From a virus: 64,000 nt of DNA. Numbering within the stretch: the stretch's first letter is position 1; every line of letters begins with the position of its first letter. The notes under the pieces were generated by a model. That model did not search any database, was not told the origin of the DNA, and worked only from the letters and a program-made list of their open reading frames with translations. Positions 5,164-64,000 of the stretch are shown one piece after another. A program made the position numbers and the translations under genes. Location of the stretch: positions 2,382 to 66,381 of IMG/VR virus record IMGVR_UViG_3300033149_004564, one strand, 5' to 3'.

Positions 5164-5344
5164 GTCGGCAGCCGGGAGCGTGGCCGCTTAAATTGCCATG
5201 AAAGCAGATAGGGCATCCGTCCCTTGCGCTCCACTCCAACTCCCGCAGCAGGGCGTTGGCCTCATCCCGTTCTTTCTTTGCCTTGGCAAACTCAGTGTGG
5301 AGTTTCGCAATTTCATAGCCCGTTTGAGTCATTTCCCCCCCCAC
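5114..5344 (-). CDS. small Zn-finger protein
   Basis: CPIC...H..GC. Confidence 0.55.
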   Translation of the reverse strand: MGGEMTQTGYEIAKLHTEFAKAKKERDEANALLRELEWSARDGCPICFHGNLSGHAPGCRLDAYLKGQPVEGENNE

Positions 5345-5682
5345 GCAAGTCTCTCTGTAAGCTTCTCGTTAATATCTTGCAAGTGCGCTACGTCCAGCGT
5401 AGTATTACAGGCCGGACACCAATACTCTCCAGGCTCAGCCACGTAACCCTTGTCAGCCTTCATCCAAGTAAACTCACCTTGATAACCACAAGCAGGACAC
5501 TTGGCGGTGAGAAAGTGCTGTAGACGCTTCTTTGTTTCGGCAAGCTCCTCCTTCATCGCGTACCACTGTTCACGAGTGGCCTTGAGCGTTCCAAGTGCGT
5601 TGCCCAATTCTTGCCCAAGCCCTTTGATCCGTTCCAACGCCTCCACCAGTTCACCCTCTGTTTGTTTATGATCCTGTGGCAT
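5329..5682 (-). CDS. coiled-coil plus Zn-ribbon protein
   Basis: heptad pattern, then CPACG...CPAC. Confidence 0.6.
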   Translation of the reverse strand: MPQDHKQTEGELVEALERIKGLGQELGNALGTLKATREQWYAMKEELAETKKRLQHFLTAKCPACGYQGEFTWMKADKGYVAEPGEYWCPACNTTLDVAHLQDINEKLTERLAWGGK

Positions 5683-5685
5683 TAC

Positions 5686-6006
5686 TCACCCTCCGGCTCT
5701 GTATTTGAACACCAATACCAACCAAACTGTATTGACCACAACGATTAGCACCCCACCAGCAAAACTGAACCATTGGTCAAGTGACGGATAATAGTATAGG
5801 TTCCACATTCCCCACGCCGTGAAAAAACATACTGGCAACCAGCTTACCCCCGCGACTACTTTGTCAATTAGGAGCCGCCTGACATTCAGCGTTAGTAAAG
5901 CCGCACCAACCAATTCAAAGCAACCGTTGATCAAGTCATTGTGCTGCACTATTCCTCCAATGCTCTCGCAATCTTCCTGTTTATCTCTTCCTGTGTTCCC
6001 ATCCAT
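5686..6006 (-). CDS. PQ-loop/SemiSWEET-like 3-TM membrane protein (true start probably near 5949)
   Basis: 'RLLIDKVVAGVSWLP..FFTAWGMWNLYYY'; three hydrophobic helices. Confidence 0.6.
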   Translation of the reverse strand: MDGNTGRDKQEDCESIGGIVQHNDLINGCFELVGAALLTLNVRRLLIDKVVAGVSWLPVCFFTAWGMWNLYYYPSLDQWFSFAGGVLIVVVNTVWLVLVFKYRAGG

Positions 6007-6290
6007 TTAGCAATCACTGCAAGACCCCGGTTGATTCGTATGACGTACAGCGTTAGCGTTGCAATGGCTCCTGTAAGAACGCCAACTATAGCGAGTTCCA
6101 TTTATTCCTCCGGCTTAAAGGGTATTTCTTGCTCCTACGGAACATCATCCCAGTCTAATGAATCAGGGCGCTTGTCTTCTACCAGTAGATTCCCTAACAA
6201 CGCAAAGAGCATTGGGGGAATTACAGTAATAACCAAACAGCCGAGGACTATCCATTCCGCAACCATGCGCAACATCCGCAATAAGAACAT

Positions 6291-6815
6291 TTATTCCTCC
6301 GGCTCAAAGGATATTTTGTAGCGGGTGAAGGTTTCCCAACAGGTATCTACAACAGCCCCAATGTCCAGTGTGTCTACCCGTACCAGCCGCCGACTCCCTG
6401 CGTATGTTAGTGATAAGGGGCAGGGCACTACTTTATAATCAACCACAGCCACCACATGCGCCCGCGCCAGCTTCGCCTCAAGGCTGTCGATACGGGCCGC
6501 ATCAGACATTATGGGAGTGGTGCTCTTGACCACCCCAAAAGTATAAGCCGTGCCCTTTTCAAGAACCACACTTTTAGAGTGTGTGGCGAGGTCATCGCGG
6601 ATATCCTCGCGGACATCCTCCACTATTCGTATCAACTCAAAGTCTTTTTCCATGAGATTGCGCCACAGCCAGGGGAACCCTTTGCGAATCGAGCCGTCAG
6701 GATAGTGTACAATTACATCATCACAGGCCGTATCTCTTATCACTATGACGCTATCCATCCGCGCCATTCCCGGCAACGCACACAGGAGCAGGGCTGCCAC
6801 GAGTAGTCTAATCAT
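6291..6815 (-). CDS. signal-peptide protein, paralog A
   Basis: MIRLLVAALLLCALPGMA; shares N- and C-terminal blocks with 7755-8333. Confidence 0.7.
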   Translation of the reverse strand: MIRLLVAALLLCALPGMARMDSVIVIRDTACDDVIVHYPDGSIRKGFPWLWRNLMEKDFELIRIVEDVREDIRDDLATHSKSVVLEKGTAYTFGVVKSTTPIMSDAARIDSLEAKLARAHVVAVVDYKVVPCPLSLTYAGSRRLVRVDTLDIGAVVDTCWETFTRYKISFEPEE

Positions 6816-7338
6816 TGGTTGCCTTCCTTTCGGCCAACCAGAGCAGGATGGCGATGTAGGCTTCGGGTTCGGTGCTGGCGGTCTTCTCAAACGGCTTACC
6901 CTTCTTGCAATAAAGAGTAGGGATTAAACTCACTTTGTGTTCTTTTAACGTGCCCTGTGTCTCGCTAACCCACTCATCATACTCATAGCGTAGTTTATAT
7001 CTTAAACCACACATCTCTCGCACCTTATCGCTGATTTGTTTCTGCCAATAAGGATTCCGATAATTACAATGCCTTGCTTCCACAAGGTCCATACCAGAAG
7101 TGCCAGATTTGACAAGGCCGCTAAGAAACTCGCTTCTACTTCCCTCTATTTCCCCCAGCGCCCTTGCTATCTCCTCGCTGTCAGCGTACCCTTGCCGTGT
7201 CGGTATAATGTCACACTCGCAATCCTCAAAATGACGGTGACACTTATCGCAGGTACATTCAATGCCCCCTGTCTTGCTGTCAGTCATCAGCTGCCTCCAA
7301 TGTCTCACATAGAGCAGGAATCGGGCTATCGGCTTCAC
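6808..7338 (-). CDS. hypothetical protein
   Basis: 176-aa ORF ending 'STEPEAYIAILLWL', a common phage C-terminal motif. Confidence 0.5.
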   Translation of the reverse strand: MKPIARFLLYVRHWRQLMTDSKTGGIECTCDKCHRHFEDCECDIIPTRQGYADSEEIARALGEIEGSRSEFLSGLVKSGTSGMDLVEARHCNYRNPYWQKQISDKVREMCGLRYKLRYEYDEWVSETQGTLKEHKVSLIPTLYCKKGKPFEKTASTEPEAYIAILLWLAERKATND

Positions 7339-7754
7339 CTACCAAATAAGCCCGAATCGCGCTTGGTATCTCTTCCAGAATTGTTGTTTTAGTTCTGATC
7401 TCTGTCGTGGCCAAGTACCGCTCACGCGCCGCAACAATCAACCGAGGAAGCCAGAAGTAAGGATCGAGAGTTGCACTATTTTTTCTATCAAAGGCTTTTG
7501 GATTACAATAATGATTCCTTTTTAGCTTCAACACCCTTGTGCACCGTTCGGCCTCAGCCTGCATTAGCTGTTTCATCTCCACACTCCTATCCAGCCCGGA
7601 TTACCAAAGCAAACCTCGCGCTTATATGTTTGCTGATAGCCACACTTGGTGCAGGTTCGTACTTGCCCCAACTCAGGATCATGCAGTGTAGGATACTTCC
7701 ACTTATGGTCACACCGAGCAGATGTTCCGGTAGTCCAGCTATGCGTTAGCCGTT

Positions 7755-8333
7755 TCATCTCACCTCTGGCTCAAAGGAGATTTCGTAGCGAGTAAAATAG
7801 TGCATCTCTCTTGTTGTATATTCAGTGCCCTCAATCGGAATCGACTCCCGTCCTTGCTGCATATATGCTCTGCGTGTTATTATTGCCATGCCAGAATCGG
7901 GTATTGCCACCACATGCGCCCGCTTCAGCACGGCCTCAAGGCTGTCAACCCTGTTCATCGTTTCATCGGCGGCTGCGAGGCGGGACGACACGCCTATCAT
8001 CCATCTTTGGAACACAGCAAACTGTGGGTCGTTATACCTTGCCTCTGGCAGCAAAGTTAAAAGTCTTGCCATTTGATCCTCAAGGCTATCGGTGCGGGCC
8101 TCAAGCTTGATAATTGTACTATCTACAACAGACATTTGCATAGGGGGCAGTAGCAAATCCCACCGCAGTGGCGCAGAACCCTCCTCTAACGAGATTCTCC
8201 GAACACGGGTAGATATTATCGAACTTATGGTATCGGGCCGGAAGCGATACCAAACCTCATGGTCATCCTGCGCCATTCCCGGCAGCGCACACAACAGCAG
8301 GGCCAATGTGGTTAGTATAATTAGCTGTTTCAT
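7755..8333 (-). CDS. signal-peptide protein, paralog B
   Basis: MKQLIILTTLALLLCALPGMA; 'DSLEAVLKRAHVVA'; ends FTRYEISFEPE. Confidence 0.7.
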   Translation of the reverse strand: MKQLIILTTLALLLCALPGMAQDDHEVWYRFRPDTISSIISTRVRRISLEEGSAPLRWDLLLPPMQMSVVDSTIIKLEARTDSLEDQMARLLTLLPEARYNDPQFAVFQRWMIGVSSRLAAADETMNRVDSLEAVLKRAHVVAIPDSGMAIITRRAYMQQGRESIPIEGTEYTTREMHYFTRYEISFEPEVR

Positions 8334-9217: not shown

Positions 9218-9233
9218 CTCTATTATATTATAC
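9218..9233 (-). promoter_or_regulatory. conserved phage promoter motif copy (GTATAATATARTAGAG)
   Basis: near-identical to copies at 10993, 18003, 26723 and 35489. Confidence 0.7.
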
Positions 9234-9279
9234 TAAATTTTGGGAAAACTAAGATGTAAATTTATAAAGTTTTTTTATC

Positions 9280-10992: not shown

Positions 10993-11010
10993 CTCTACTA
11001 TATTATACAA
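10993..11010 (-). promoter_or_regulatory. conserved phage promoter motif copy
   Basis: TTGTATAATATAGTAGAG, intergenic, upstream of 10753-10965. Confidence 0.75.
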
Positions 11011-11014
11011 AAAA

Positions 11015-13347: not shown

Positions 13348-13356
13348 AGAATCTAA

Positions 13357-13474
13357 TCCCGAAGTGGACCCCAACTATGATCGGCAATCTCTACCTGCGC
13401 GTCCACAGGCCGATAGCACGTTTACAAGAGATCGCGTTGGCACCGTGTGTCTGCATTCAGCAGCCACTTCGGAA
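13357..13474 (-). ncRNA. stem-closed small RNA candidate
   Basis: terminal stem CCGAAGTGG/CCACTTCGG; GC-rich; inner ATCGGC/GCCGAT helix; adjacent to the tRNA. Confidence 0.55.
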
Positions 13475-13478
13475 TATT

Positions 13479-13553
13479 TAACCTGCCGGGGCCGGATTTG
13501 AACCGGCTATCAACGTCCGATACGCTTACCGCACCACGCCGCCCGGTAGGTTA
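13479..13553 (-). ncRNA. tRNA-like RNA (acceptor-like stem plus T arm, no canonical D/anticodon arms)
   Basis: TAACCTACCGGG...GCCGG-TTCAAAT-CCGGC-CCCGGCAGGTTA. Confidence 0.6.
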
Positions 13554-13991
13554 TTCTTTATACCTAAAAAAATGATTTCTTATCTTAGCTCGTTCAATAG
13601 ATACATCTCGTTTTATTTTTACAAAAAAACCTGAATATTTTCTTTTTGCTTCATCTGCATTTCCACAAGTAAAAACTAAAAATTCATACAATAATTTTGA
13701 CCAACAAATATCAGATATTTTCCCAGCAAGATAAAAACCAAAACAAAAAGCTAATATAGCAGTTATAATTATAATTAGATAAATCATAATAAAATCGTCT
13801 TTTTTAGTTCTTCAACAGTTGTTATTGCAATTAGCTTCTCTCCAATTAAATAACTAACTTCAATGTTTGGCTCTGCTTCAAAGCACCAACCATGCACGGC
13901 GCCTTCTCCGTCATAAGCTACAGTACCGAGTGGTGAGATGGGAAGGAAGACAATTGCTTCCTTCCCATCATTTGTTAGAAATTTAAATGGC

Positions 13992-18002: not shown

Positions 18003-18020
18003 CTCTATTATATTATACAA
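18003..18020 (-). promoter_or_regulatory. conserved phage promoter motif copy
   Basis: TTGTATAATATAATAGAG upstream of 17713-17991. Confidence 0.75.
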
Positions 18021-18044
18021 GATTTTTATTTTTAACCAACAAAA

Positions 18045-22230: not shown

Positions 22231-23433
22231 TCAAGTTGCTTTAATATTATGTAGTGGAATAAGTCGATCAATGATTTCTGCCGTTGGGCTTATAGTTGAT
22301 TCAATTAACGCCGTATCCTTATAAGCCATAGGAGCTTCATCAAGCGTGCTCTCGACCACCGACTGGCTGTAGATGCCCTCCATCGATGCGGTAAAATCCT
22401 CCATCGGTATCTTTGCCTTCGCCGCAGTGCGAGACAGCACCCTTCCAGCCCCATGTGGTGCACTATAGTTCCAGTCTGGATTACCTTTGCCCTCAACAAT
22501 AAATGTCCCATCACGCATATTCAGAGGAACGATTGCAAGCTGGCCTTTGTTGCATTGAATAGCACCTTTACGAATAATATTGTCATCAAAGTTAATATAG
22601 TTATGCACAGATTCAATTTCATCAGACGGCACACATCCTGGAAGCAGTTCAATAATCAATCTCGCTATCGTATGACGATTAAGTTCTGCATATTCTTGGG
22701 CGGCTTTCATATCACGTAAATAACCAACTAACTCAGCACCCTCTAAGTATTCCAACCCTCTATCCATTTGAGTACAATTGGCTTTTAACGCATTGACCCT
22801 CTGCCCTATTTCTTCATTGGTTGAGGTTGTTTCTTTAAGTGCTTTAACCTTCTCTGCAAAATCCTTTTTTTGTGATACCCTATTCTTAGCTTGCTTCTGC
22901 CAGTAATCACAAATACACTTGCCAAAATTTCTTGATCCAGTATGAACAATAAGCCATATATCTCCATTTCTAAATGATCTTGAAAACTCAATAAAATGAT
23001 TACCACCACCAAGAGTTCCTATACTTTTAAATGCTCTTTTTTCAGCTGCTCCTACTCTATAACATATCTCAAACCATGTTGGTTTACCGTCTATTGCCAT
23101 AGAGCGAACAGCAAACCCCATTGGTACTACTTTTCTAATATCATCATCAAAGTCTTTTGTGCCAATACGCTCCAGCAATTCTGAATTATTCCCTAAGTTC
23201 ACAGCTAATACTCCACAGCCAATATCTACCCCCACAATATTAGGGGCCAGCTTATTGCCGAGCTTCATAGTAAAACCAATAACAGAACCGTATCCTGCAT
23301 GGCAGTCCGGCATAATAGCAATAGGATTAGTAAATTGCTCATTATTAACCATTTGACTAATTTGCTCTAAACAAGATTGTTCAACATTATCAACATAGAT
23401 AAGTGCTGAAGTATATTTACCATTTATCATCAT
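22231..23433 (-). CDS. rtcB: RNA ligase RtcB
   Basis: 'MPDCHAG', 'VGVDIGCG', 'GTLGGGNHFIE', 'HTGSR', 'HNY', 'SAPHGAGR', 'DEAPMAYK'. Confidence 0.96.
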   Translation of the reverse strand: MMINGKYTSALIYVDNVEQSCLEQISQMVNNEQFTNPIAIMPDCHAGYGSVIGFTMKLGNKLAPNIVGVDIGCGVLAVNLGNNSELLERIGTKDFDDDIRKVVPMGFAVRSMAIDGKPTWFEICYRVGAAEKRAFKSIGTLGGGNHFIEFSRSFRNGDIWLIVHTGSRNFGKCICDYWQKQAKNRVSQKKDFAEKVKALKETTSTNEEIGQRVNALKANCTQMDRGLEYLEGAELVGYLRDMKAAQEYAELNRHTIARLIIELLPGCVPSDEIESVHNYINFDDNIIRKGAIQCNKGQLAIVPLNMRDGTFIVEGKGNPDWNYSAPHGAGRVLSRTAAKAKIPMEDFTASMEGIYSQSVVESTLDEAPMAYKDTALIESTISPTAEIIDRLIPLHNIKAT

Positions 23434-26722: not shown

Positions 26723-26740
26723 CTCTACTATATTATACAA
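26723..26740 (-). promoter_or_regulatory. conserved phage promoter motif copy
   Basis: TTGTATAATATAGTAGAG. Confidence 0.75.
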
Positions 26741-26802
26741 AACCCAGCTCTAAAATATGTAAAAAAGTTATTATTACTTAAAGCATGAATAAAACTTCTT
26801 CA

Positions 26803-27817: not shown

Positions 27818-28267
27818 CTATTTAGGTACAGCATAAATACAAAAAGAACTAAGAGCCATACCATCTGTTATTAAAATCATATCTGAATTACCAAGAAACA
27901 AACGAAGCAAACCGCTTACTGGTAAACAATCAATATTCCAATCTATGGGTCTAATCTTATTTGGCACACCCAATCCATCTTCACTCCACTTATACCCAAA
28001 ACCCCCAATGCCATTTATATGCAATACATCACTACATCCAGATAATCTACATATAGCAGTATCTTTCTTACAAGCAACAAAATCAATACACCTATACCCA
28101 CTATCATGTCTATGCCGTTGTGGTAATATTACAATAGAATCAAAATTTATGTTTGCCCTATCCAAACTATCAATATATGATACAGCATCAAAATCTTTTC
28201 GTGTCATTTTAGTTATGCTTTTCATCATTCCCCCTATATTTTTTAAATTTTCTCCATCGATAGCCAA
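27818..28267 (-). CDS. hypothetical phage protein
   Basis: 'HDSGYRC...SGCSDVLH'. Confidence 0.55.
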   Translation of the reverse strand: MAIDGENLKNIGGMMKSITKMTRKDFDAVSYIDSLDRANINFDSIVILPQRHRHDSGYRCIDFVACKKDTAICRLSGCSDVLHINGIGGFGYKWSEDGLGVPNKIRPIDWNIDCLPVSGLLRLFLGNSDMILITDGMALSSFCIYAVPK

Positions 28268-30801
28268 TTAGTTCCAAAAGTCCAGGAAACGGTAATTGGA
28301 ACATCACGCATCCACGGCCACCGATTTCTTCTAAACTCTCTATCTACTATATCAAATACATCATCAAGTTCATCACTCACTGTATCAACTGTTACTGCAT
28401 CATGCACCTCAATATTCATACCACTTTTAAATCTTTCTCCTATCATAATCTTATCAATTTCAACCATACCGCCAAACATAATCCAAGTAGCAAGGTGTTG
28501 AATTGGTGTATTAATAACCTGCTTTTCATCAAGTGGACCACGCCGTCTAAAACCTGTGGGCATTTCTACATAACCGGTCCGTTTATAATCTTGTTTAGTC
28601 TGCTCTTGCCATTCAAATAAATCTTTATATTCATTCTCAAGCATTCTAATACAATGAATAATATGCTTTTTCGGTAAATTATATCCAGCTTGCATAAAAT
28701 GCCCACAAATTGAATCATCTTGACTACCATAAAATTTTGGAAACACAAAATTACTTTTTGTAAAATCTCTATTTTTCTCAGCCACCCTATCAGTAGCAAC
28801 ATCAAATAATTTTGCTGCCCATTTTGAGTGTATATCAACCCTGTCTTTTATTTGTTTTGTTAAAATTTTATCTTCAGAAACCATAGCCATTACCGCAACT
28901 TCCATTGCTTTACCATCACCCTCAAGAAAATAATCAAACTTTGGTATTATACATTTACGAACAACTTTTTGCTCTTCATCTCTTTTTGGTACATTCTGCA
29001 AATTTGGATCGTGTGAATTACTTCTAATTGTATCAGTCATTAAATCAAAAGATGGATGAATTAAATTATCTTCATCAACCAGGGTGCGCCAAGAGTGTAA
29101 ATATGTTTTCAAAAACTTAGTTGTTTTTTTACAATCAATAACCTTTGTAATAAAAATTTTTATTTCTTTACTTTTTACTCTATCTTTTAATTCAATCAAA
29201 CTTGCTGCATCAACTTTATATTTACCGGTTGCTGTTTTTCTTCCATCATAATCTATACCAAGAATTGAATAAAACAGTGTTGCAAGCTGATCTGGGCTGT
29301 TTATATTTAATCGTTTTCCTTCTTTGCTATAAAATTTTTTACCAAACAAATCGGCACACTCTCGTTTTAATCTATCAATTTTTTTCTGTCCTGCTTTGTA
29401 TTGTTTATCAAGTTCTTCTAAATCTATTTTTATTCCACGCTGTTCCATTCTTGCAAACACATGTAAAACTTTCTCTTGTATCTTATGCCCTTTTAATAAA
29501 TGTTTATCCATTATTTTTAGTTGCCACTGCTGAATCATCTTTGTATATCTTGCATCAAGAATACCATACATTACAGCTTTCTGTAATGGATACATTTCTA
29601 ATCGTTTAACATCTATATCTGAATCATATGTTGAACCAGCCAAACAAAATACTTGTGTTTTTAGTCCAGATAATCCTTTCCTTTCATCAAGTAAATGAGC
29701 AGTATGTTGAGTACAAAATGAAACATTTGTAGGCCAAACACCTAAATGTTTAATAACCCAACGCATGTCAAATTTTCTGTTCTGGGCTATTTTAAGCGTC
29801 TTATGCTGCAATAATTGTTGCAGCAAAATAACTATATCTTTTCTCTCAGTTTCAGTCCAACCGGGCCAGTATGAACCTTGAGAAGGAAAATCAATCGGAA
29901 CCCCATAACCAATTTTACTTGAAAATGCTATTGAAAATATTAAAATTTTTGCATCAGCAACATAGGGATTTAATCCTCTTGTTTCAAGATCAAAAGAAAA
30001 CGGTTTAAGGTTTTCGTCTGCTATCCAAGAGCTTAATAATTCTTTAATCTCTTTATATTTAATCAATATTTTGTTGCCAGTATTCTCATCAAGCTTTGGA
30101 AAATCATGCGAACCAATCTCAAGTAAATGTTTCAATTCAGCATTAAACAAATGCCTAACAGAATCATCATCATTGTTGTAAACAACATGAGCAGGATGAT
30201 ATGAAAATCCTATTTTACAATTATATTTATTTGACCAAAAAACAGTTTTTCTTGCAAGCTGCCAAGTCATATCTACGCGCCTTGAATCTGATGCTTCCAA
30301 CATATAATTATAAACATTCTCACCAAAACAAAGGATCAAATCTGGTTTATACTCAGCAAGTTGTAAATCAAGCCTTTGTTGCATACAGCTAACAACAATA
30401 TTTTTAGCTGGAAATTTATTTGCTTTATCAACAGCGGGTGGAAGCGGCCTACACTGCACAAGATTAAATTGTCTTAAATCTTTATCAAGTGAAATATTAA
30501 GTTTTGAAAATGCTCTTTTTAATACCTTACCAGATTTTCCACGAAACGGTTTATTTTTATTATCCTCTTCTCTACCAGGAGATTCACCAACAACAGCAAT
30601 TGAAAGCTCTCCGCCGCCGTATGGTTCCATTTGTGGAGAAAGCGGAGCATTAAATAGTGGGCACTGTTTACCACACTCAATTAATTTTGTGCTTTCCCTT
30701 CCCTTACCCTTTCTTTTTGTACTCACTTTAGAATAATATGATTCATCAATGTGGCGGCCCAACAGATAACTAACATCAAGGTCAAAATTTTTATCTGCCA
30801 T
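28243..30801 (-). CDS. polA: family A DNA polymerase fused to an N-terminal family-4-like uracil-DNA glycosylase domain and a 3'-5' exonuclease
   Basis: UDG 'VGESPG.EED...PF.G.SG', 'CRP', 'HPA'; Exo 'FDLET', 'KFD', 'YGILDA'; Pol 'PNLQNVP', 'DGKAME', 'K..FVFP.FYG', 'VHDA'. Confidence 0.92.
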   Translation of the reverse strand: MADKNFDLDVSYLLGRHIDESYYSKVSTKRKGKGRESTKLIECGKQCPLFNAPLSPQMEPYGGGELSIAVVGESPGREEDNKNKPFRGKSGKVLKRAFSKLNISLDKDLRQFNLVQCRPLPPAVDKANKFPAKNIVVSCMQQRLDLQLAEYKPDLILCFGENVYNYMLEASDSRRVDMTWQLARKTVFWSNKYNCKIGFSYHPAHVVYNNDDDSVRHLFNAELKHLLEIGSHDFPKLDENTGNKILIKYKEIKELLSSWIADENLKPFSFDLETRGLNPYVADAKILIFSIAFSSKIGYGVPIDFPSQGSYWPGWTETERKDIVILLQQLLQHKTLKIAQNRKFDMRWVIKHLGVWPTNVSFCTQHTAHLLDERKGLSGLKTQVFCLAGSTYDSDIDVKRLEMYPLQKAVMYGILDARYTKMIQQWQLKIMDKHLLKGHKIQEKVLHVFARMEQRGIKIDLEELDKQYKAGQKKIDRLKRECADLFGKKFYSKEGKRLNINSPDQLATLFYSILGIDYDGRKTATGKYKVDAASLIELKDRVKSKEIKIFITKVIDCKKTTKFLKTYLHSWRTLVDEDNLIHPSFDLMTDTIRSNSHDPNLQNVPKRDEEQKVVRKCIIPKFDYFLEGDGKAMEVAVMAMVSEDKILTKQIKDRVDIHSKWAAKLFDVATDRVAEKNRDFTKSNFVFPKFYGSQDDSICGHFMQAGYNLPKKHIIHCIRMLENEYKDLFEWQEQTKQDYKRTGYVEMPTGFRRRGPLDEKQVINTPIQHLATWIMFGGMVEIDKIMIGERFKSGMNIEVHDAVTVDTVSDELDDVFDIVDREFRRNRWPWMRDVPITVSWTFGTNWLSMEKI

Positions 30802-33814: not shown

Positions 33815-34525
33815 TTATCCGATGCTAAGAATACCCTTCTTACTCACTTTCACAACCCAACCATAGGCAATACCCCAACGATATAGGCGCCACCACATAT
33901 CATATTTAGCCCGTGTATGTCCCTTTTTCTTCTCATTCATCAACCGATCAATAATATCATCCTCTGTACACTTCTTTGACAAAATTGCAGAAAGAATAAT
34001 TCCATGATCTGAGCCTTTACGAAAACCAATAAACTCATTTGTAGTCTTTGACTTAAGCACACCAGCACCAACTCTGGGTTCTCTGGCCTTTGCTGGTTTA
34101 TCAGCCTTCTTACTACTCTTCTTACTGCTCTTCTTACCAGTAGCTTTCTTCTTTACTGACTTTACTTCTTCAGGCTTCTCACTCTCAAGCTCAAGTTCAT
34201 CTTCCACACCATCATCTTCTTCCTCAGTTTCCTCTTCTTCAAAACCATCTTCGGCGGCAACCGCCGTCTCGATTTCCTCTTTCTCGATTTCCTCTTTCTC
34301 GGTTTCCTCTTCCTCAAGTTCATCATCATCTACTTCTTCAGGCTCCTCTTCATCTAACTCTTCCTCAGATTCCTCTTCAGAATCATCATCAGAAAATTCA
34401 AGATCATCTTCATCTACATCAACTTCTTCAAGCTCCTCTTCATCATCAATTTCATCAACAAGAGCTTTTTCATTCTTACTCTTATTCTTAATCTTTTCAG
34501 ACTTTTTATTCTTCTTCTTCGACAT
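33815..34525 (-). CDS. highly acidic protein with basic linker and small C-terminal domain
   Basis: ~100-aa D/E tract, then KKSSKK, then a folded-looking domain. Confidence 0.75.
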   Translation of the reverse strand: MSKKKNKKSEKIKNKSKNEKALVDEIDDEEELEEVDVDEDDLEFSDDDSEEESEEELDEEEPEEVDDDELEEEETEKEEIEKEEIETAVAAEDGFEEEETEEEDDGVEDELELESEKPEEVKSVKKKATGKKSSKKSSKKADKPAKAREPRVGAGVLKSKTTNEFIGFRKGSDHGIILSAILSKKCTEDDIIDRLMNEKKKGHTRAKYDMWWRLYRWGIAYGWVVKVSKKGILSIG

Positions 34526-34580
34526 TTTACAGCCCCTTAAATAAATAATAAAAAGAAAACAAACAAGTGAAAAATTTATT

Positions 34581-35036
34581 TCAGCAACAGTTATTTATAA
34601 ATATCAAAAAGTTTTCCCCCCTAAAATAAAGTACTATTGGTTTTTCTTTATCGTGTTTGAATCGACCATCAAAAGGAATTTGAAGTTTAAGCTTTGCAGA
34701 AGGAAATATTTTCTTTATAGATTCAAAAGTGCCACCTCGGTTTATTTCAAAATTATTACCATAACCTTTATCAATGTGCACAATCCCAGTAGTCTGTACA
34801 TTAAGTTGATTCCCTTTACTATCAATCGCAGCAAAATCAGTGCAATCTATAATAATAACTGTATCACGGTGATTTGTTATTTCAATATGTAAATACCCCG
34901 CAAATCTAAGAAGCTTTGTGATTCGATACTCAATGCCATCAACCGTTCTCGGTGCGTCTTTTGTCTTTTTACCATCAATTTTAATAGCAAAAACCAATGA
35001 CGGAAAAAGTAGCATAAGAAGAACCAAAGATTTCAT
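34581..35036 (-). CDS. exported protein
   Basis: signal peptide MKSLVLLMLLFPSLVFA. Confidence 0.6.
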   Translation of the reverse strand: MKSLVLLMLLFPSLVFAIKIDGKKTKDAPRTVDGIEYRITKLLRFAGYLHIEITNHRDTVIIIDCTDFAAIDSKGNQLNVQTTGIVHIDKGYGNNFEINRGGTFESIKKIFPSAKLKLQIPFDGRFKHDKEKPIVLYFRGENFLIFINNCC

Positions 35037-35124
35037 TTCTCCCCCATATATATTGAACTTTTAGAATTAATGAATAAAAACAGAAAGATAAAACAAAACG
35101 CAACAACTAAATTAAATATTGACA

Positions 35125-35433
35125 TGGAAAGCATTCGGGATTTGAACCCGTAAATTGCGCAATTGAAATTAACGTCTCTATAACGTTAGAGCAACGAATC
35201 GGTATTTTCCCAGCATCATCAAAGTTTTCGTTAATTCCTGGGAGTTGCGTCGTCCCTTCAAAGTTTTCAGTACAGGTTACCTAACTCTATTCTGCAATTC
35301 AAGAGGAGTTGTCTGCAATTTCCGATTAACTCACAGACTACCGGTTTGTCCGTCTCTTCCTCTAACTCTGGAAAATAGAGGTTTGATCCACAGTACCTAA
35401 GCCGTAATCCGACTATCGGCTGCCATACTTCCC
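35125..35433 (-). ncRNA. ~310-nt tRNA-ended structured RNA, tmRNA-like
   Basis: 5' GGGAAGTAT pairs with 3' ATGCTTTCC-A (G3.U70, A73); T arm CGGG-TTCAAAT-CCCG; several internal helices and possible pseudoknots; promoter motif upstream. Confidence 0.6.
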
Positions 35434-35488
35434 ATGTCAAAGAACAAACACAACAAAAAACCTTAAAATTATACTTGTTGATTTTACC

Positions 35489-35506
35489 CTCTATTATATT
35501 ATACAA
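35489..35506 (-). promoter_or_regulatory. conserved phage promoter motif copy
   Basis: TTGTATAATATAATAGAG. Confidence 0.75.
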
Positions 35507-35522
35507 AATTTTCTTGGAATTA

Positions 35523-36467
35523 TTAAATTTTTTCCGCGCTCTCCATTAACCCAAACATTTTTTCTCTACCAAGGCTGTCTGGATCTTCGCCGGCAGGCAA
35601 AATTAAAACCCTAACACACTTAAAAAGTGGAGATATTGTCTCTGCAACTTTGATGCTTTTTATTGTTGCATCAGCATCCCAACCAATATATACAGTACGA
35701 ATATCGTGTTGTAATAATAAAAGCAATTGGGCTTGTGTCAAATTATTTCTAAATGAAGCAACAGTGTTTGAACCCATACGCCATCGATCAAAAATTCCTT
35801 CAACGATTAATATCCAATTTTTCTTTTGCTTATGCAGCCAGTAAAGGTGTTCACCAAAAGAAAACCCAGGATTTAAATATGATAATATTCTTTTACTCTT
35901 TTTTCTTTGTAGATTTCTTGCTTGAAAAGAAACACGTTGTCCAATACTATTATAAATTGGTAAAATTATTCTATTTTTATATTTTCCTACACCACAAAAA
36001 TACGCTTTATAATATTCAGCTTTCTTTTTTGAAAACCCCCTAAATTTTAAAAAAGACTCCATTGCTTTTATATCTTTTGTTCTTGGTGGTAATGCTATGC
36101 TACTTTTATATTTATTATTTATCACTTCTTTTTTTGGAAAAAACCTCTCTCTTAATTTAATGCTTGTTGGAGTTGGATCATTTATATAAGAATTTTTTAC
36201 AAGCGAAAAAAATTCTGGATACTTTATACCAGTTAATTTAGCAAGCAAGTCAAAAAGACTACCATTTGCACCACAACGGAAACAAGAGAAATTAAACGTT
36301 TCATTAAATATCCCACAATGAAAACCACTATCAATAGAAGTGCAGAAAGGGCAACAAACACCAACAAAACAAGCTGTTCCAACGTTCTTGTGACCCGGCA
36401 ATCGCCACTCAATTGAATATTCATCGAGGTGGCCTTTCAAATCAAAGTTTTTTAAATTAAGTGGCAT
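35523..36467 (-). CDS. DNA primase (Zn finger plus TOPRIM)
   Basis: CPFC...H...CFRC; 'RIILPI', 'IVEGIFD', 'WDAD', 'EDPD'. Confidence 0.9.
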   Translation of the reverse strand: MPLNLKNFDLKGHLDEYSIEWRLPGHKNVGTACFVGVCCPFCTSIDSGFHCGIFNETFNFSCFRCGANGSLFDLLAKLTGIKYPEFFSLVKNSYINDPTPTSIKLRERFFPKKEVINNKYKSSIALPPRTKDIKAMESFLKFRGFSKKKAEYYKAYFCGVGKYKNRIILPIYNSIGQRVSFQARNLQRKKSKRILSYLNPGFSFGEHLYWLHKQKKNWILIVEGIFDRWRMGSNTVASFRNNLTQAQLLLLLQHDIRTVYIGWDADATIKSIKVAETISPLFKCVRVLILPAGEDPDSLGREKMFGLMESAEKI

Positions 36468-37983
36468 CTATCATCCCACCCTTTTTCTGCATCCATTTTA
36501 ATTTTCTACGTGCAATTTTTCTTTCGTCATAACCACCTTTAATCAACTCTTCATCTACTGTGTCAATAACTACAAGATCAATAAACGTGCAGGTTTCTTT
36601 CTGCCCACCTCTAAATATTCTACCCTCGCATTGCTCTCTTGGCTTCGCTCCTTTACCTGAATTAGAATAAAAAATCATTGTACTACAAACCCTTTGAAAA
36701 CCATCCATAGCTTCACCACCACTTTGTATATTCAATACCATAACCTTTATCTTTTTGTTTCTTAAAAATGAATCGACTTGTTGTCGTTTATCTTTTATTT
36801 CACCACGCAAGGATGCAAAAAGAATTTTCTTCTTTCTTAAAAATTGTTCAATCATTCTGCCTTCTTGAACAAAGTGATGAAATACCATCGCTTTGCCTTC
36901 TATCTCTTGTAAAACTTCATCAAATAATAAAAGCTTTGCAGTTGGAAATGTTGTCTTTACTTCACCAGCTTCAAGAAAGAAGCCGCTTACAATCTGTCTT
37001 AATTTATTAACCATACCAGCAGCATCAGCAATAGTTAATTCTTTACCACCAACTTTTGCAAAACCCTTTTTCAATAGTTTCTTGTAAATAGTGCTTTGCT
37101 TTGGTAATAAATTACTACCCCTTTCCTCTCTAATAATTTTTGGTAAATCAAAACATTCTGATTTATTAAACCGTAAAGTCACAGGAGAGACAAGTTTTAA
37201 TATTTTCTTTGCCTTTTCTTTATTTTTTATCTCCCAACCTTTCCAATAATTCTGTTTAAAATAATTTAATTTAAATCTCCAAAATGAATTACCAAGAGTC
37301 TTACCAAGATCAAGTACATAATACTCTGACCATAAACTAAGTTCACCAACAGGCATTGGACTACCCGTCATTAAAACAACTTTATCCATTTGCTTTGAGA
37401 TTCGATAAGCTATTTTTGTTTGTATTGCAGTTTCATTTTGTAGTTTGTGTGCTTCATCTGCAATAAAACCAGTAAACCCAATTTTTTGTATCTCTTCAAG
37501 CCAACAATCATCAATCATAAATTTATTAATACTAACATACTCAGAACCCTGTTTACGAACAAGGTTTCTTTTAGCACCAAACAAAAATTTTAATCCCTCA
37601 TAATTAATACAACAAACTAATTTTTTGTGTTTATCCAAAGCAGAACTTGTAAATAACTTTCTGCGTTCATTTGTAGTACCAATTAAATCAACGTAATTAT
37701 AATCTGTGTATTTTTTTACTTGTTTTTTCCAAGTCTCACTTACTATACAAGAATTAGGACAAATAACAAACACCCTTTTAATTCCCCAAATATTCATCAT
37801 ATATAATGAAGTAATTGTTTTACCAGTACCTATATCGTGCCAAAACATCACTCTATTTTTTTCAAGCCCAAAAGCAAATGTTACATATTGATGCCATCTT
37901 GGAGACAGTTTAAATTTATAATCACCAAATATTTCTTGTAGCTCAGGTAGCTCAAACTCTTTAAATGTTAATTTTCTATTCAC
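36457..37983 (-). CDS. SNF2-family helicase
   Basis: 'DIGTGKT', 'DEAH', 'MTGSP', 'QCEGRIFRGGQ'. Confidence 0.9.
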   Translation of the reverse strand: MNRKLTFKEFELPELQEIFGDYKFKLSPRWHQYVTFAFGLEKNRVMFWHDIGTGKTITSLYMMNIWGIKRVFVICPNSCIVSETWKKQVKKYTDYNYVDLIGTTNERRKLFTSSALDKHKKLVCCINYEGLKFLFGAKRNLVRKQGSEYVSINKFMIDDCWLEEIQKIGFTGFIADEAHKLQNETAIQTKIAYRISKQMDKVVLMTGSPMPVGELSLWSEYYVLDLGKTLGNSFWRFKLNYFKQNYWKGWEIKNKEKAKKILKLVSPVTLRFNKSECFDLPKIIREERGSNLLPKQSTIYKKLLKKGFAKVGGKELTIADAAGMVNKLRQIVSGFFLEAGEVKTTFPTAKLLLFDEVLQEIEGKAMVFHHFVQEGRMIEQFLRKKKILFASLRGEIKDKRQQVDSFLRNKKIKVMVLNIQSGGEAMDGFQRVCSTMIFYSNSGKGAKPREQCEGRIFRGGQKETCTFIDLVVIDTVDEELIKGGYDERKIARRKLKWMQKKGGMIDAT

Positions 37984-38036: not shown

Positions 38037-38065
38037 TTGACAGCAAAGAGATAATGCGTTATTAT
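38037..38065 (+). promoter_or_regulatory. tnpB promoter
   Basis: TTGACA-N17-TATTAT, implying a start at ATG 38072. Confidence 0.65.
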
Positions 38066-39187
38066 ACATATATGAAACGAACCATTTCCATAAAGTTAGA
38101 GACTACACAAGAGCAATCTCAAGCTCTTTCTAACTTGCAAGCCGAATATAACCGGACATGTAATCTGATTGTCCCGTTTGTCTGTGAAACTCGCTGCTGG
38201 AACCGCGTGGCCCTGCATCACATTGTTTATTATAAAATCAGAGCACAATCGAAACTTGGTTCTCAAATGGTTTGCATTGCAATAAAGGCCGTTGCAGATG
38301 CTTATAAAACATTGAAACCCAAAAGAACAGAAGATGTTCCTCCCATTTCTTTTAAAACAACTTCCAGTGTTCATTTTGATGCCCGCACGTTTTCCATTCA
38401 AGATGAAGCTCTTTCCCTTTATACGTTGTCCAGTCGCATTCGTGTTAAAATGATACTCGGAGATTTTCAGAGAAAATATTTTGATAATGGAACAGTAAAA
38501 GAAGCTGATCTTGTTTGTAAGCACAAAATTTGGTATTTTAATCTCGTTCTGGATTTGCCTGATACTCCTCTTAAAACCGGAAATGGCAGTGCTGTCGGAG
38601 TTGATCTTGGAGAGAACAACTTGGCCGCCATATCCACCGGAAAGCTTTTTGGTGGTGGTCAACTTCGACACGAACGTGATAAGCATCTTGCCCTTCGCCG
38701 CAGGCTTCAACGCAACGGCTCTCAAAGCGCAAAACAACTGCTTTGCAAAGTCTCTGGTCGAGAAGCCCGCCATGTTTCCCATGTTAACCACGAAGTAAGT
38801 AAAGCCATTATCACAGAAACTCTGCAATCGGGAAGCAACACGATTATACTGGAGAACCTGACCAATATCCGCAAACGCATTAAAGGAAGTAAAAGGATTC
38901 GTTCCCGCCTGCATCGCTGGGCATGGGCAGAACTTCAACGCTTTATTGAGTATAAAGCACAAGCTGCTGGTATTTGTGTTGAATATGTTAATCCTGCATA
39001 TACCAGTCAGACTTGTAGCATTTGTGGTTCTCTCGGTTCTCGTGTTAAACATCATTTTTCCTGCTCCTGTGGAAGCCTCGCGCACAGCGACTTGAACGCC
39101 AGTCGAAATATTGCGAAGCTTGCATCATTCTTTAATGGTGCAACGGGCGCTGTGGGCCGTCCGAATGTGGCAACCGTTTCTGGTTGA
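38054..39187 (+). CDS. tnpB: RNA-guided endonuclease TnpB
   Basis: RuvC 'GVDLG', 'ILENL', 'SDLNASRNI'; Zn finger CSIC...CSC. Confidence 0.95.
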   Translation: MRYYTYMKRTISIKLETTQEQSQALSNLQAEYNRTCNLIVPFVCETRCWNRVALHHIVYYKIRAQSKLGSQMVCIAIKAVADAYKTLKPKRTEDVPPISFKTTSSVHFDARTFSIQDEALSLYTLSSRIRVKMILGDFQRKYFDNGTVKEADLVCKHKIWYFNLVLDLPDTPLKTGNGSAVGVDLGENNLAAISTGKLFGGGQLRHERDKHLALRRRLQRNGSQSAKQLLCKVSGREARHVSHVNHEVSKAIITETLQSGSNTIILENLTNIRKRIKGSKRIRSRLHRWAWAELQRFIEYKAQAAGICVEYVNPAYTSQTCSICGSLGSRVKHHFSCSCGSLAHSDLNASRNIAKLASFFNGATGAVGRPNVATVSG

Positions 39188-39220: not shown

Positions 39221-40627
39221 TTACCCATAATCCTCATCATCTCCATCAATATCAAAAAGTTCCCCAGACGCTGAATATGGTATTGAATATTTTCTAAATT
39301 GTCCTGTTGCAAAATTAGTTCCTACTATACACTTTGCCCCAACAATTGCACTGTTTCTTGCTTTAATTATTTGAATACAAAGTTGATCATGTTCAAACAT
39401 TTCATCAGTCTGTGAAAGAGTAATAATTGAATCTGCGTGTCCGGCTTTTTGTTTATTTATAGATAAATGCCTTAAACCTATTCTACAAGTTTTAGATGCG
39501 ATCTCATCATTTATTTGGCTTGGAATAATTATAGCAACACCACGCTCATCTGCAATTCGTTTATGCCGCTTATAATTCTCATTTACCATTTCATAATCAC
39601 CACCATCTGCCATTATATCAGGATAATCATTCAAAATTAAATCAGGCATAAAATTATCAAAACTTTCAAGCTGATCAAGCAGGTTTCTAATATCTATCAT
39701 CGTAGCAGAACTCATTGGAAACTTTTTTATTCTTAATTTACCTGGCATTTTAGCTGTCATTTTTCGTATTCTTTGTACTACTTTATAATTTGTAATTGCA
39801 GGACGCTTTATATTTTTTTTATATAATTTTCCTTCTCGTTTATTATAATACCAAACTAAAATCTCTTTCTCTTTCTTTTGTGTAAGCGCACCAAAACTTT
39901 GATCATATCTAATTTTTAATTCTGTCTCACTCATTTCATGGCTAATATGCAATACATTTAAACCTCGCTTCATTGCTTGTTTTGCAAGATGTATTAACCA
40001 CCAACTTTTACCAATACCATAATACCCTGCTATTGTCAACAATCTCCCACGATAAATACCACCAGTAATTTTATCTAACTGCGGAATACCAAACGGCATA
40101 AGCCAATCAACGTCAGTCTGTTCAAGTCTCGTTTCTAAGTCTTGTTGATCATGATAGTATTGCCCTTTATTTACAGTCTCTATTCCTGATTTCAATGCTG
40201 TGTAAAGTGTTTCCTTTGCTTCAGCTAATTTCCCATCTTCAAGTAATTCAGCAGACAATAATGTACCAATTTCAAGCTCTTTTGTAACAATAAATTCATT
40301 TAATCTTGTTTTGATGTAAGATGCTGTAGGTGGATGTAAATTTTGTAGTTTTTTTGCGTACTCAATAAAAATCTTTTTCTCTGTATTCTGCATTCGTTTC
40401 TGACTATCAAAAAATCTTTTCAACTCATCTGAAAAATGATTCTTTGGTGACTCATTATGAAAATCAAAAAAATTAATACAAAGTTTAAATAAACTCCTTG
40501 AATACTTTGAAGTAAAATATTCTTCTTTAATAATTGCTCTTATCACTTTTACAAAACTTGTATCTGTAATCATTAATTGAATAATACTATCTTGAAAATT
40601 CTGAGATAATATATCTCTGTCGTTCAT
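39221..40627 (-). CDS. dnaB: replicative DnaB-like helicase
   Basis: 'GYYGIGKS', 'HISHEMS', 'NDYPDIM', 'PSQ', 'KARN'. Confidence 0.9.
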   Translation of the reverse strand: MNDRDILSQNFQDSIIQLMITDTSFVKVIRAIIKEEYFTSKYSRSLFKLCINFFDFHNESPKNHFSDELKRFFDSQKRMQNTEKKIFIEYAKKLQNLHPPTASYIKTRLNEFIVTKELEIGTLLSAELLEDGKLAEAKETLYTALKSGIETVNKGQYYHDQQDLETRLEQTDVDWLMPFGIPQLDKITGGIYRGRLLTIAGYYGIGKSWWLIHLAKQAMKRGLNVLHISHEMSETELKIRYDQSFGALTQKKEKEILVWYYNKREGKLYKKNIKRPAITNYKVVQRIRKMTAKMPGKLRIKKFPMSSATMIDIRNLLDQLESFDNFMPDLILNDYPDIMADGGDYEMVNENYKRHKRIADERGVAIIIPSQINDEIASKTCRIGLRHLSINKQKAGHADSIITLSQTDEMFEHDQLCIQIIKARNSAIVGAKCIVGTNFATGQFRKYSIPYSASGELFDIDGDDEDYG

Positions 40628-61466: not shown

Positions 61467-63048
61467 TCACTTTCTTGTGTTTACTGTTCGCCCATCAACT
61501 ATCAATGCGCCACCAACGGCAGGGGTCTCTATTGTTTTCCACGCGCCGAAGCTCTTACCTCCGCAGCGTGGCTCCCTGTTTCCGTGATAGTGGTCGTATC
61601 GGCATCATTCCCCAGTGTCATATACTCAAAACCCCAACTGGTCATATTCGCACCGCCAACGGAATCAGCATTGGCGTGGAGAATCACCGTTACCATATCG
61701 AGATTGAGCGAATCAGCGGTCGTTATTCCCGGCTGATATTTTTCTTCGTAATAAACTACAATATAAGGTGCCTCACCTGCGCCCAATGACCAAATTGATC
61801 TCCAGTCCAGTCCTGACGGCTCTACATTCTTATGATCTTGCCGATCCATCATAAAAAGCTTCAAACTATCACCGAGAGCATTCTGTATCCCCGTCTTGCC
61901 ATCAGCCGTAAAAAGACGGCTATAAAACACTCCCTCAGAAGAACCAGAATTAACTATAAAAGGCTCGGTATATTTTACTACATTGGGGTACGCAACATCC
62001 CCCGCCGCATGGCCCGTAAACTCTGTCAACCAGACCGAATCAATAGAACCGCCCGTAAGCGTGGCCTCAAGTATATCCACTGTATCATTTCCTACGGGGT
62101 TGGTTGTTAGCCACACATTCAAATATGCAGAATCAACCACCCCTCCCTGTATCGCTGACAAATCAAAAACTAAACCGGCGCGTGCCATATAAAAATAACC
62201 CACAGCTTCATACGTACCTATATTGGCGGAAGTCGTACTAAACGCATACCCCATCGTATCAGCCCTTGTGGTTGCATACGTTGGGGTTTCATGCGCTCTA
62301 AATGCACCAGCGGTTGTTAAAGAGGTATCATTAATAACTGAGGGATCAAACCAAACAGAGTCACCCGCTACAATGGTGCCCAGCATTACGATCAGGCTAT
62401 CGGCGGTAAACTGCGCTGTAAAGTCAACGGCCTCCTTCTTCTTATTCCACGCCTTTAGCTTACCGAGCCGCATTCGTTCAACGCCTTCAATGCTCTTGAT
62501 AACCGCTCCATCTGACAGCACAGTCTTTGCCAGCGCACCGATAAGGTTGTACTTCCACGCCAACCGGGTAGGAGATTTGCTTGTTAGAATCAGGGTCTCT
62601 TTCACCCCGCTCGAAGTAATGTCAAACTCAACATCAATCCCAGCAGTGGAAGAATCGGGAATGAACTCAACGGACGTTCCCAGCCTTTCATATTTATACT
62701 TGCCCGGCCGAGTCTTGCTGTAAGTAACCTCGAACCGTCCGGCGTTGACTTTCGTGTCGTAGTCGCCTGCTTTTGAGGCTCCCAGAATTGAAGTCTCAGT
62801 GAACCGATAAGGAACCATCGTACCCGCAGAATCCCAGTTGATCGGGGGGGAACCAGATAAGCCATAATGAATCGCCCGCTGCCAATAGAATCGACCTCAT
62901 ACGTCACGCTGTTTATCGTACCTTTGCTGACCCGCCGGATAGTGTTAATCGGCTGAACCGGCTCTTTGCTCTTGGTTACTTTCAGATCCCCAGCCAGCAA
63001 CAGGGAAGGCAATAGCAAGGCCAGCAATGTCAATATGCTTTTCCGCAT
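61467..63048 (-). pseudogene. exported DNRLRE-like plus FN3-like protein broken by two apparent frameshifts (ORFs 62602-63069 and 61529-62818)
   Basis: signal peptide MRKSILTLLALLLPSLLLA; frame change at the G7 tract 62844-62850; 'RAGLVFDLSAI...VDSAYL'; FN3-type end 'GKSFGAWKTIETP' in a shifted frame. Confidence 0.65.
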
Positions 63049-63050
63049 GG

Positions 63051-64000
63051 TCAATCCTCCCATAGCCACGGGTGCGGGTCAATTTCAATATCAATCGTGG
63101 TTGAATCCTCTGTCGTCCATCCGTAGTTCTGCATCTTCTTTGTATTGCTTCGCAGCGAATCCGTGAGGCTCACCCCGCCAGCGGTAACTGAATCGCTCAC
63201 TATCTTGAGACCCGCCGTTGGAAAGTTGTACCACGATATCGTTAACAGCCCTGTTTTCTGGAAGCGGCCTGTCGCGCCCTTATTCACAGAATCAACGGCA
63301 AAGCCTCGCGCCACAATCGAGGTTGAAGTATCGGCCCGATACCACCTGTCATCCGATTTCAGGTAGTAGGCCCGGCCCGGACTTAAAGTATCCCCGGCCT
63401 CGCCGTAATGGTATTTCAGGCTGTCAACCTCAGTTTCAAGATTAGCTATTAGGCCCTGATTCACAACCACAGAATCCATAGTACTATCTATACCAGATTC
63501 TAAGTCAGCTATTAATCCCTGATTCACCACTACAGTATCTACAATAGAATCTAATCCAGTTTGCAAGCTATCAATACCTGCCTCAGCAATATTTAATCAG
63601 CTATGTTTAATGCGGTATTAATAGAATCAGTTGCAGATTGTAAACTATCTATACCAGATTCAGCTATATTTACATCTTCTAATACAGAATCAAGTCCAGT
63701 TTGTAATGAATCAATATCAGCTTCTGCTGCGTTCAAGTCCGTGCCTATAGAATCTGTAGCAGATTGTAAACTATCTATACCAGCTTCTGCTATATTTACA
63801 TCAGTTTGTAAAGTAGAAATTAGGCCCTGATTCACAACCACAGTATCCATAGTAGAATCAAGTCCAGTTTGAAGCTTTGTTATATTACTTGTAAGTGTAC
63901 CAGTTAAACTCCATACCTCATCTAAAGAATCCTCAATTTCAATATAAACATCAGCAAATGTTGGTAATGCCGCAATGTCAGAAACATTATCTGACACATT
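63051..64000 (-). CDS. coiled-coil repeat fibre with capsid-decoration-like C-terminal domain; starts beyond the window; frameshift near 63595
   Basis: repeats NIAEAGIDSLQ / LDS..D.VVVNQGLI in both ORF pieces; C-terminal 'GEAGDTL..G.AYYLKSD..WY.AD'. Confidence 0.7.

Follow-up and report, generated by a model that had tools for sequence, protein, structure and literature searches.

Several described systems come close to the element reported here. Species 1 and 2 of phage T4, the CI RNA of P4 and the C4 RNAs of P1 and P7 are small, stable, tRNA-like RNAs of 77-140 nt; they are non-coding, carry tRNA-like acceptor/T modules, and arise from longer transcripts through processing by RNase P, an enzyme that measures the usual 12-layer acceptor/T stack. 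tmRNA (SsrA) is not known to have stem-loops resembling the D and anticodon arms before the T arm, and its tags usually end in a hydrophobic C terminus. A further system, YrlA, is linked to the RNA ligase RtcB in some bacteria. This bacterial Y-RNA-like molecule is described in PMC4201824 as a modular RNA in which one domain mimics tRNA and the two ends form a stem.

Here we set beside these systems a structured element from an environmental phage. The window, by which we mean the whole stretch of 64,000 nucleotides that was analysed, makes up most of a 66-kb IMG/VR virus record with an estimated completeness of 49%. The only public sequencing runs that share words with positions 34900-35700 are labelled marine sediment metagenome, and no RNA run is listed among them; contigs from two marine-sediment DNA runs do not cover the element, and they have no bearing on expression. 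The minus strand of the element reads GGGAAGUAU...CGGG-UUCAAAU-CCCG-A-AUGCUUUCC-A. An earlier, sequence-only reading of the DNA had proposed a tRNA-ended RNA that starts with GGGAAGUAU and ends with AUGCUUUCC-A, and both of these ends are indeed present on the minus strand. The features discussed in this paper are collected in Table 1.

Table 1. Features of the element, of its surroundings in the window, and of the corresponding slot in related loci (window coordinates unless stated otherwise).
Feature	Position	Strand	Remarks
Whole element, closed by an inverted repeat	35119-35440	-	322 nt
Candidate RNA core	35125-35433	-	309 nt
5' arm of closing stem	35425-35440	-	UUGACAU-GGGAAGUAU; carries a TTGACA hexamer
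5' hairpin	35400-35421	-	RNA nt 13-34; loop with AGUCGG; D-arm-like by eye, no tool score
Proposed 'tag' frame, ADNSS	35299-35316	-	RNA nt 118-135; overlaps helices nt 96-103/116-123 and 71-76/127-132
Internal hairpin UCCCAG...CUGGGA	35208-35243	-	RNA nt 191-226; P 0.93
Sub-threshold tRNA-like cloverleaf	35126-35200	-	anticodon loop AUUUCAA (UUC, Glu)
Perfect 12-nt palindrome	35153-35164	-	AAUUGCGCAAUU / AATTGCGCAATT; just before the T arm
T-arm-like hairpin CGGG-UUCAAAU-CCCG	35136-35150	-	RNA nt 284-298; P 0.97
3' arm of closing stem	35119-35134	-	AUGCUUUCC-AUGUCAA
Promoter-like motif TTTGTATAATATAATA	35492-35507	-	extended -10; conserved in L007
Promoter family T(T)TGTATAATATA(A/G)TA	9221-9236, 10996-11011, 18006-18021, 26726-26741, 35492-35507	-	
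DnaB-like helicase gene	39221-40627	-	
IS605-family TnpB gene	38054-39187	+	OrfB_IS605 and Cas12f1-like TNB domain
Second helicase gene	36457-37983	-	
DNA primase gene	35523-36467	-	upstream of the element
P0001	34581-35036	-	downstream ORF; 151 aa; hydrophobic N terminus
Very acidic, repeat-rich protein gene	33815-34525	-	next after P0001; kept in L007
DNA polymerase gene	28243-30801	-	
RtcB RNA ligase gene	22231-23433	-	adjoins RecA-like gene; Pfam 213 bits
tRNA Met-His-Leu, locus L014	from 2 nt past primase stop		
tRNA Cys-Ser-Ser, locus L020	at primase stop		
tRNA Met-His-Gly, locus L016	519 nt past primase stop		

The genes near the element form a minus-strand replication module, which contains, besides the replication genes of Table 1, a sliding-clamp-like protein, a clamp-loader-like ATPase and a RecA-like protein. 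Compared with those of SPO1-like and SP-10-like Bacillus phages, the primase shows 25-29% identity. The element lies within the 485-nt gap that separates the primase stop (35523) from the start of P0001 (35036), an ORF for which we sought a family match and found none. P0001 is served by a separate, strong ribosome-binding site located 80 nt past the element, and no plausible protein frame runs across the element itself. The presence of RtcB in the phage suggests RNA or tRNA repair during infection; a search of the 66-kb record, about 49% of the genome, gave no match to the Ro/TROVE, splicing endonuclease, CCA-adding enzyme or archease families. The TnpB gene lies antisense between the DnaB and helicase genes, and its element has a GC-rich hairpin at each end, near 37990 and 39220. 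Elsewhere in the window, positions 4001-8000 and 62001-64000 have 46-50% GC, compared with a genome mean of 36%, and these stretches may be foreign or differently constrained.

The closing stem of the element had been said to extend to 16 bp and does so: positions 35425-35440 pair with 35119-35134 through 14 Watson-Crick and 2 G.U pairs, of which 7 bp lie beyond the tRNA-like end. Read on the minus strand, the two positions that are not Watson-Crick pair as G.U; read on the plus strand, they would be A/C mismatches. Considered as DNA, the same arms constitute 16-nt terminal inverted repeats with 14/16 complementary positions. We assessed the stem by a randomization procedure that holds the T arm and the tail fixed and shuffles the upstream 520 nt (n=3000). 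A 16-bp stem arose in 0/3000 shuffles and a stem of at least 12 bp in 1%, whereas a 9-bp partner arose in 17%. Thus, the 9-bp 'acceptor' is unremarkable alone, and it is the full 16-bp stem that is remarkable. We conclude that the combination of the 16-bp stem and the T arm is not the product of chance.

In base composition, too, the element stands apart from its surroundings: its GC content is 43%, compared with 22% and 23% in the flanking spacers and a window mean of 36%. It is single-copy, in that the window contains no second copy of the element and nothing else there matches its interior. No target-site duplication is visible by eye at its ends. Similar G/T-rich repeat units stand ahead of the element, of P0001 and of the acidic protein gene in the window, as might be expected if cassettes had been exchanged at a leader sequence that recurs. 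Two direct copies of AATTGCAGA lie inside the element, 21 nt apart, at 35299 and 35320 on the minus strand. A third site resembling TTGACATGG, at 38772-38787, is within chance expectation and was rejected.

The claim that a phage promoter motif lies upstream is borne out. The motif TTTGTATAATATAATA has a -10 hexamer that ends 64 nt before G1, and its predicted start is near 35491, approximately 58 nt before G1. Allowing up to three mismatches, the motif has 19 matches where 4.4 are expected, and 0/100 shuffles reach 19; the five copies with at most one mismatch are all on the minus strand. The same extended -10 motif occurs three times in L007, the nearest relative of the phage (see below). 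Since our scan of 34400-36000 found no terminator-like site, the element would share a transcript with P0001 and the acidic protein gene. The promoter scan also reports TTGACA-17-GATAGT, starting in the 5' arm of the closing stem, with 10/12 matches.

The 309-nt minus-strand RNA has a predicted minimum free energy of -86.9 kcal/mol (z -2.05, with 4/100 shuffles as good), compared with -66.2 kcal/mol (z -0.17) for the plus strand, and so the predicted fold is strand-specific. When the comparison is corrected for GC, using 411 genome windows of the same length, z becomes -1.36 and 9% of windows fold equally well. The predicted overall folding is thus only modestly better than chance. In the predicted ensemble, the pairing probabilities are 0.98 for the 9-bp end stem, 0.97 for the T arm, 0.95 for nt 96-103/116-123, 0.93 for nt 191-196/221-226 and for nt 20-24/30-34, and 0.88 for nt 246-252/258-264 and for nt 71-76/127-132. 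Three long-range helices had been proposed for the interior, and one of them, UCCCAG/CUGGGA, is recovered (P 0.93); the other two, CUCUAUUUU/AGAAUAGAG and GCAAC/GUUGC, are suboptimal, at 1.6-4.4 kcal/mol above the minimum.

We now turn to the likeness to tRNA. The T arm CGGG-UUCAAAU-CCCG is present as proposed, one base before the 3' strand of the stem. When both strands of the 64-kb window are searched for its consensus, GGTTCRANTCC, only two sites appear. The 3' 75 nt of the element score 17.5 bits against the Rfam tRNA model (RF00005), for which the gathering threshold is 29, with an E-value of 1.1; similarly, ARAGORN calls a tRNA-Glu(UUC) only at thresholds of 90% or below, and nothing at the default or at 95%. 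This Glu(UUC)-like cloverleaf has a D stem of 3-4 bp, a D loop without GG, and a poor local acceptor. Indeed, the distant 5' strand, some 290 nt away, pairs with the 3' acceptor strand far better than the local one does. The acceptor and T-stem geometry (9+4 or 9+5), described earlier as non-canonical, is so in every register that we tried by hand, and the stack has 11, 13 or 14 layers and never 12.

With anticodon-loop introns allowed, ARAGORN found no tRNA that uses the GGGAAG 5' end; the element interior has no match to the Rfam tRNA model at E<=10; and a comparison of the element with 15 tRNAs, taken from relatives and from the window, revealed no specific similarity past the T arm. ARAGORN placed no intact tRNA gene beside the element, and the window contains no spare direct copy of its tail. 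At a low threshold ARAGORN reports a 'tRNA-Asn' at the 5' end of the element, which we found unconvincing.

The second GGTTCRANTCC site belongs to another odd tRNA-like stretch. Directly upstream of a tRNA-Pro gene, on the minus strand at 13348-13560, lies a GC-rich, strongly folding stretch of approximately 210 nt (MFE -85.4, z -3.57, 0/200 shuffles as good). Its first 75 nt form a unit the size of a tRNA, which contains a canonical T arm, GCCGG-UUCAAAU-CCGGC, and is closed by an 11-bp end stem in which one pair is mismatched. ARAGORN makes no call for this unit, and in Rfam it receives only an 11.4-bit local match to the T arm of tmRNA.

The sequence-only reading had gone further, and suggested that the element might be a divergent RNA of the tmRNA kind. 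The more general part of that suggestion, a tRNA-ended structured RNA on the minus strand, agrees with the strand-specific fold, the GC island, the T arm and the promoter, but the tmRNA part is not borne out. ARAGORN calls no tmRNA here at the default, 95%, 70% or 50% thresholds; at the two lowest it yields spurious permuted tmRNA calls with other ends. At gathering thresholds Rfam gives no match of any kind here, and a search of 801 nt around the element at E<=10 gives no tmRNA match; over the whole record RF00023 has a single match, of 6.9 bits, which is not at the element. In the same 801-nt search at E<=10, neither a group I intron (Intron_gpI) nor a ribozyme, a Y RNA, C4 or any further family of relevance was matched. 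SmpB was not found in the 66-kb record, which is about 49% complete, although the host's SmpB could serve. No helix joining both sides next to the T arm, as P2 would, appears in the ensemble, and ahead of its T arm the element has hairpins that look like D and anticodon arms.

The proposed resume frame, GCA GAC AAC UCC UCU UGA, does exist, but it is predicted to lie inside helices with probabilities of 0.95 and 0.88. Its product, ADNSS, lacks a hydrophobic end, and no frame of the element ends in a typical tag tail. Of the proposed alanine identity set, the G.U as third pair and the A that follows the stem are present if the 5' end is assumed to be 35433. This assumed end falls within a continuous 16-bp stem, and the G3.U70 reading depends on it; if RNase P used a 12-layer stack, the 5' end would lie at another position and the G.U would no longer be the third pair. 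We conclude that the element is not a tmRNA.

We also asked what relatives of the phage have at the same place. By blastn, we found no homologue of the element among GenBank phages or in the records behind loci L002-L004. Pattern searches were equally negative: the T arm with the tail found no homologue in IMG/VR or in species-representative genomes, the 5' hairpin found none in IMG/VR, and a pattern of both ends gave 33 chance matches in IMG/VR, none of them similar beyond the pattern. Single-protein searches of IMG/VR with the primase, the helicase, the DNA polymerase and P0001 found no close relative, nor did searches with the primase in metagenomes and with P0003, the primase, in genomes. 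A protein search did show a primase 69% identical to that of the window, and a primase alignment then recovered the contig that carries it, L007, together with 79 more distant loci. Among 85 related loci, blastn and nhmmer matched the promoter alone, in L007, and when the loci were scanned for T arms closed by a distant partner strand, the element in the window had the only stem longer than 9 bp. The locus matches in that scan were ordinary tRNA acceptors of 8-9 bp, apart from an 8-bp pairing at 447 nt in L013 that we take to be chance. A literature search returned no report of such an RNA; a catalogue of structured-RNA candidates from IMG/VR (PMC10690425) could still list it in its supplementary tables.

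L007 is the nearest relative: its primase is 69% identical to that of the window, its helicase 78%, its DnaB 79%, and a fourth protein 61%. In L007 the acidic protein gene comes after the primase stop, behind the same promoter and an AT-rich spacer of approximately 110-170 nt in which a GTTGTTTAC-type repeat occurs three times; the element and P0001 are both missing there. The promoter is the sole part of the gap between primase and P0001 that is conserved in L007. The absence of the element from L007 shows it to be accessory, either gained in the lineage of the window or lost in that of L007. The TnpB element is apparently absent from L007 as well, where the DnaB and helicase genes apparently adjoin. 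In the DnaB homologue of L007 there is an in-frame TAG (L007 3139-3141) where the window has TAT, and homologous coding continues past it; a sequencing error, disruption of the gene or read-through of the codon could each account for this. We also considered, and dropped, an origin-of-replication reading: the L007 repeat GTTGTTTACTATCC is not at the locus in the window, where its 13 loose matches (7.2 expected) are all away from the element, and Tandem Repeats Finder detects no array in 35037-35522.

Most of the 33 loci that we examined for gaps have another gene after the primase. ARAGORN finds tRNA genes in 8 of the 85 loci, and in three of these (L014, L016 and L020) the tRNA genes come just after the primase, so the slot sometimes holds tRNA genes in the wider group. 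The three clusters are 275-360 nt in total, similar in length to the element. Within two of them (L014 6033-6159 and L016 1903-2024), a non-tRNA spacer of approximately 125 nt separates the tRNA-His from the next tRNA of the cluster, and the spacer in L016 contains a T-arm-like hairpin, GCTGGGTTCACGACCAGC.

Given these observations, we tentatively regard as most likely, on the sequence evidence, that the element, in the replication module of a large phage, is an accessory, transcribed, tRNA-derived structured RNA that would be processed like a tRNA and might act as a tRNA mimic. The RNA would be made as the leader of the operon that contains P0001 and the acidic protein gene. Host enzymes (RNase III, RNase P and those of 3' trimming) would then excise a stable RNA, acting on long duplexes and acceptor/T-arm stacks as they do for phage tRNAs and tRNA-like phage RNAs. 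Its tRNA-like end could, more speculatively, mimic tRNA or act as a decoy, for instance towards an enzyme that binds tRNA or a tRNA-directed nuclease. Consistent with this reading are the 16-bp stem that no shuffle reproduces and whose G.U pairs form on the minus strand only; the strand-specific fold, in a GC island; a canonical T arm, whose motif has just one other occurrence in the window; a recurring promoter kept in L007, with no terminator-like site; and tRNA genes 0-520 nt downstream of the primase in three related loci. The RtcB match points to an investment in tRNA or RNA repair. On the other hand, the element has no homologue and hence no evidence from covariation, the closest relative does without it, so that it is dispensable there, the thermodynamic signal is modest, and the geometry of the acceptor and T stem is non-canonical.

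The alternative that survives best is that the element is the decaying remnant of a rearranged or interrupted tRNA gene, or of a small tRNA cluster, that once followed the primase and of which the T arm, the acceptor pairing and the hairpins remain. We consider this somewhat unlikely. In its favour, the 3' 75 nt are a near-miss tRNA, the D-arm-like hairpin with AGUCGG is near the 5' end, tRNA clusters of similar length occupy the same slot in other loci, the nearest relative lacks the element, and the overall folding signal is weak. Decay does not explain, however, an intact 16-bp stem that runs past the tRNA-like end, nor a GC content that has lasted amid such AT-rich spacers, and the interior has neither a tRNA match at E<=10 nor, past the T arm, specific similarity to the 15 tRNAs.

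The terminal inverted repeats raise another alternative, selfish or recombining DNA: a small gene-less insertion resembling a MITE, or a palindromic cassette whose likeness to tRNA would be a by-product of its insertion site. MITE-like elements share with our element both the inverted repeats and a pattern of presence and absence, here between relatives whose flanking proteins are 69-79% identical. Moreover, relative to L007 the module has apparently also gained the TnpB element and P0001, and G/T-rich repeat units flank the element. But the element is single-copy, with no further similarity in the 33 two-end matches from IMG/VR, and it lacks a target-site duplication, an adjoining intact tRNA gene and a spare copy of its tail. 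A strand-specific fold with G.U pairs, furthermore, is needless for a DNA palindrome. We judge this reading unlikely.

It is decidedly unlikely, in our view, that the element is instead a cis-acting leader, involved in mRNA processing, in stability or in the regulation of P0001 or the acidic protein gene, from which no free RNA is released. As a leader would, it follows a conserved promoter and precedes the next gene without an intervening terminator-like site, and in L007 the same promoter directly drives the acidic protein gene. However, no Rfam cis-regulatory family matches, a T arm stacked on a long end-to-end stem would be unusual for a leader, and P0001 has a ribosome-binding site of its own past the element.

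We think it improbable that the element represents a new class of large, tagless phage RNA with the topology of tmRNA, in which an acceptor/T cap would be carried on a body of approximately 250 nt and would serve as a decoy. In that reading the cap might be chargeable with alanine, the 12-nt palindrome could pair two copies, and a promoter that would be early and strong would supply a sponge for host tRNA-binding factors or for tRNA-cleaving defence nucleases, in a phage equipped with the RtcB repair ligase as well.

Two readings are weaker still. An interrupted tRNA gene, from which an insert of approximately 225 nt would be removed and the ends rejoined by the RtcB of the phage, is very improbable, for although the 3' acceptor strand has a perfect partner in the distant 5' strand and only a poor one in the local 5' strand, and although the phage encodes RtcB, there is no group I intron or ribozyme match at E<=10, no splicing endonuclease family in the 66 kb, no ARAGORN tRNA with this 5' end even when introns are allowed, and no GG in the D loop of the cloverleaf. 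Equally far-fetched is a divergent tmRNA or other RNA for ribosome rescue that would accept alanine via G3.U70 and encode the tag ADNSS: an acceptor-like end stem, a T arm at the 3' strand, a GG loop after the 5' strand, a large interior and, for a start at 35433, the G3.U and the following A all recall tmRNA, but both detectors, the missing SmpB in what is about half a genome, the missing P2-like helix, the base-paired tag frame and the D-like and anticodon-like stem-loops speak against it.

What has been gained, then, is that the tmRNA reading can be set aside, that the stem and T arm are known to be non-random, and that the element is recognized as accessory. Since it is a single copy with no relatives, no general claim can be made yet, but the preferred reading, a tRNA-derived structured RNA, can be placed among the known systems. 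The element resembles tmRNA (RF00023 and its clan) in that its ends pair, its T arm directly precedes the 3' strand, and a large interior with structure of its own lies in between. It differs from tmRNA in having no model match, no ARAGORN call, no P2 helix and no usual tag, in an end stem of 9-16 bp rather than the usual 7 bp, in its extra D-like and anticodon-like hairpins, and in the absence of SmpB from the 66 kb of the genome covered. With phage tRNA genes and clusters it shares a T arm, a cloverleaf (a near-miss, with a UUC loop) and the slot after the primase in L014, L016 and L020; unlike them, it falls below the thresholds of both detectors, its acceptor 5' strand is approximately 290 nt away, and its stem runs 7 bp past the tRNA-like end.

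The resemblance to YrlA consists of a tRNA-like domain together with an end stem, in a phage that encodes RtcB. Unlike YrlA, the element has no accompanying Ro/TROVE protein in the 66 kb (about 49% of the genome) and no Rfam match, and its T arm lies directly against the stem formed by the two ends, just as in a genuine tRNA, an arrangement that is not known from YrlA. With the tRNA-like RNAs of T4, P4, P1 and P7, finally, the element has in common that it is phage-encoded and non-coding and that it carries a tRNA-like acceptor/T module, while it differs from them in its larger size and in the lack of an Rfam match to C4 or any other family. If it is a working RNA, it would join the few known phage RNAs that borrow the end of a tRNA, as a much larger member, and together with RtcB it would hint at a contest between phage and host over tRNA.
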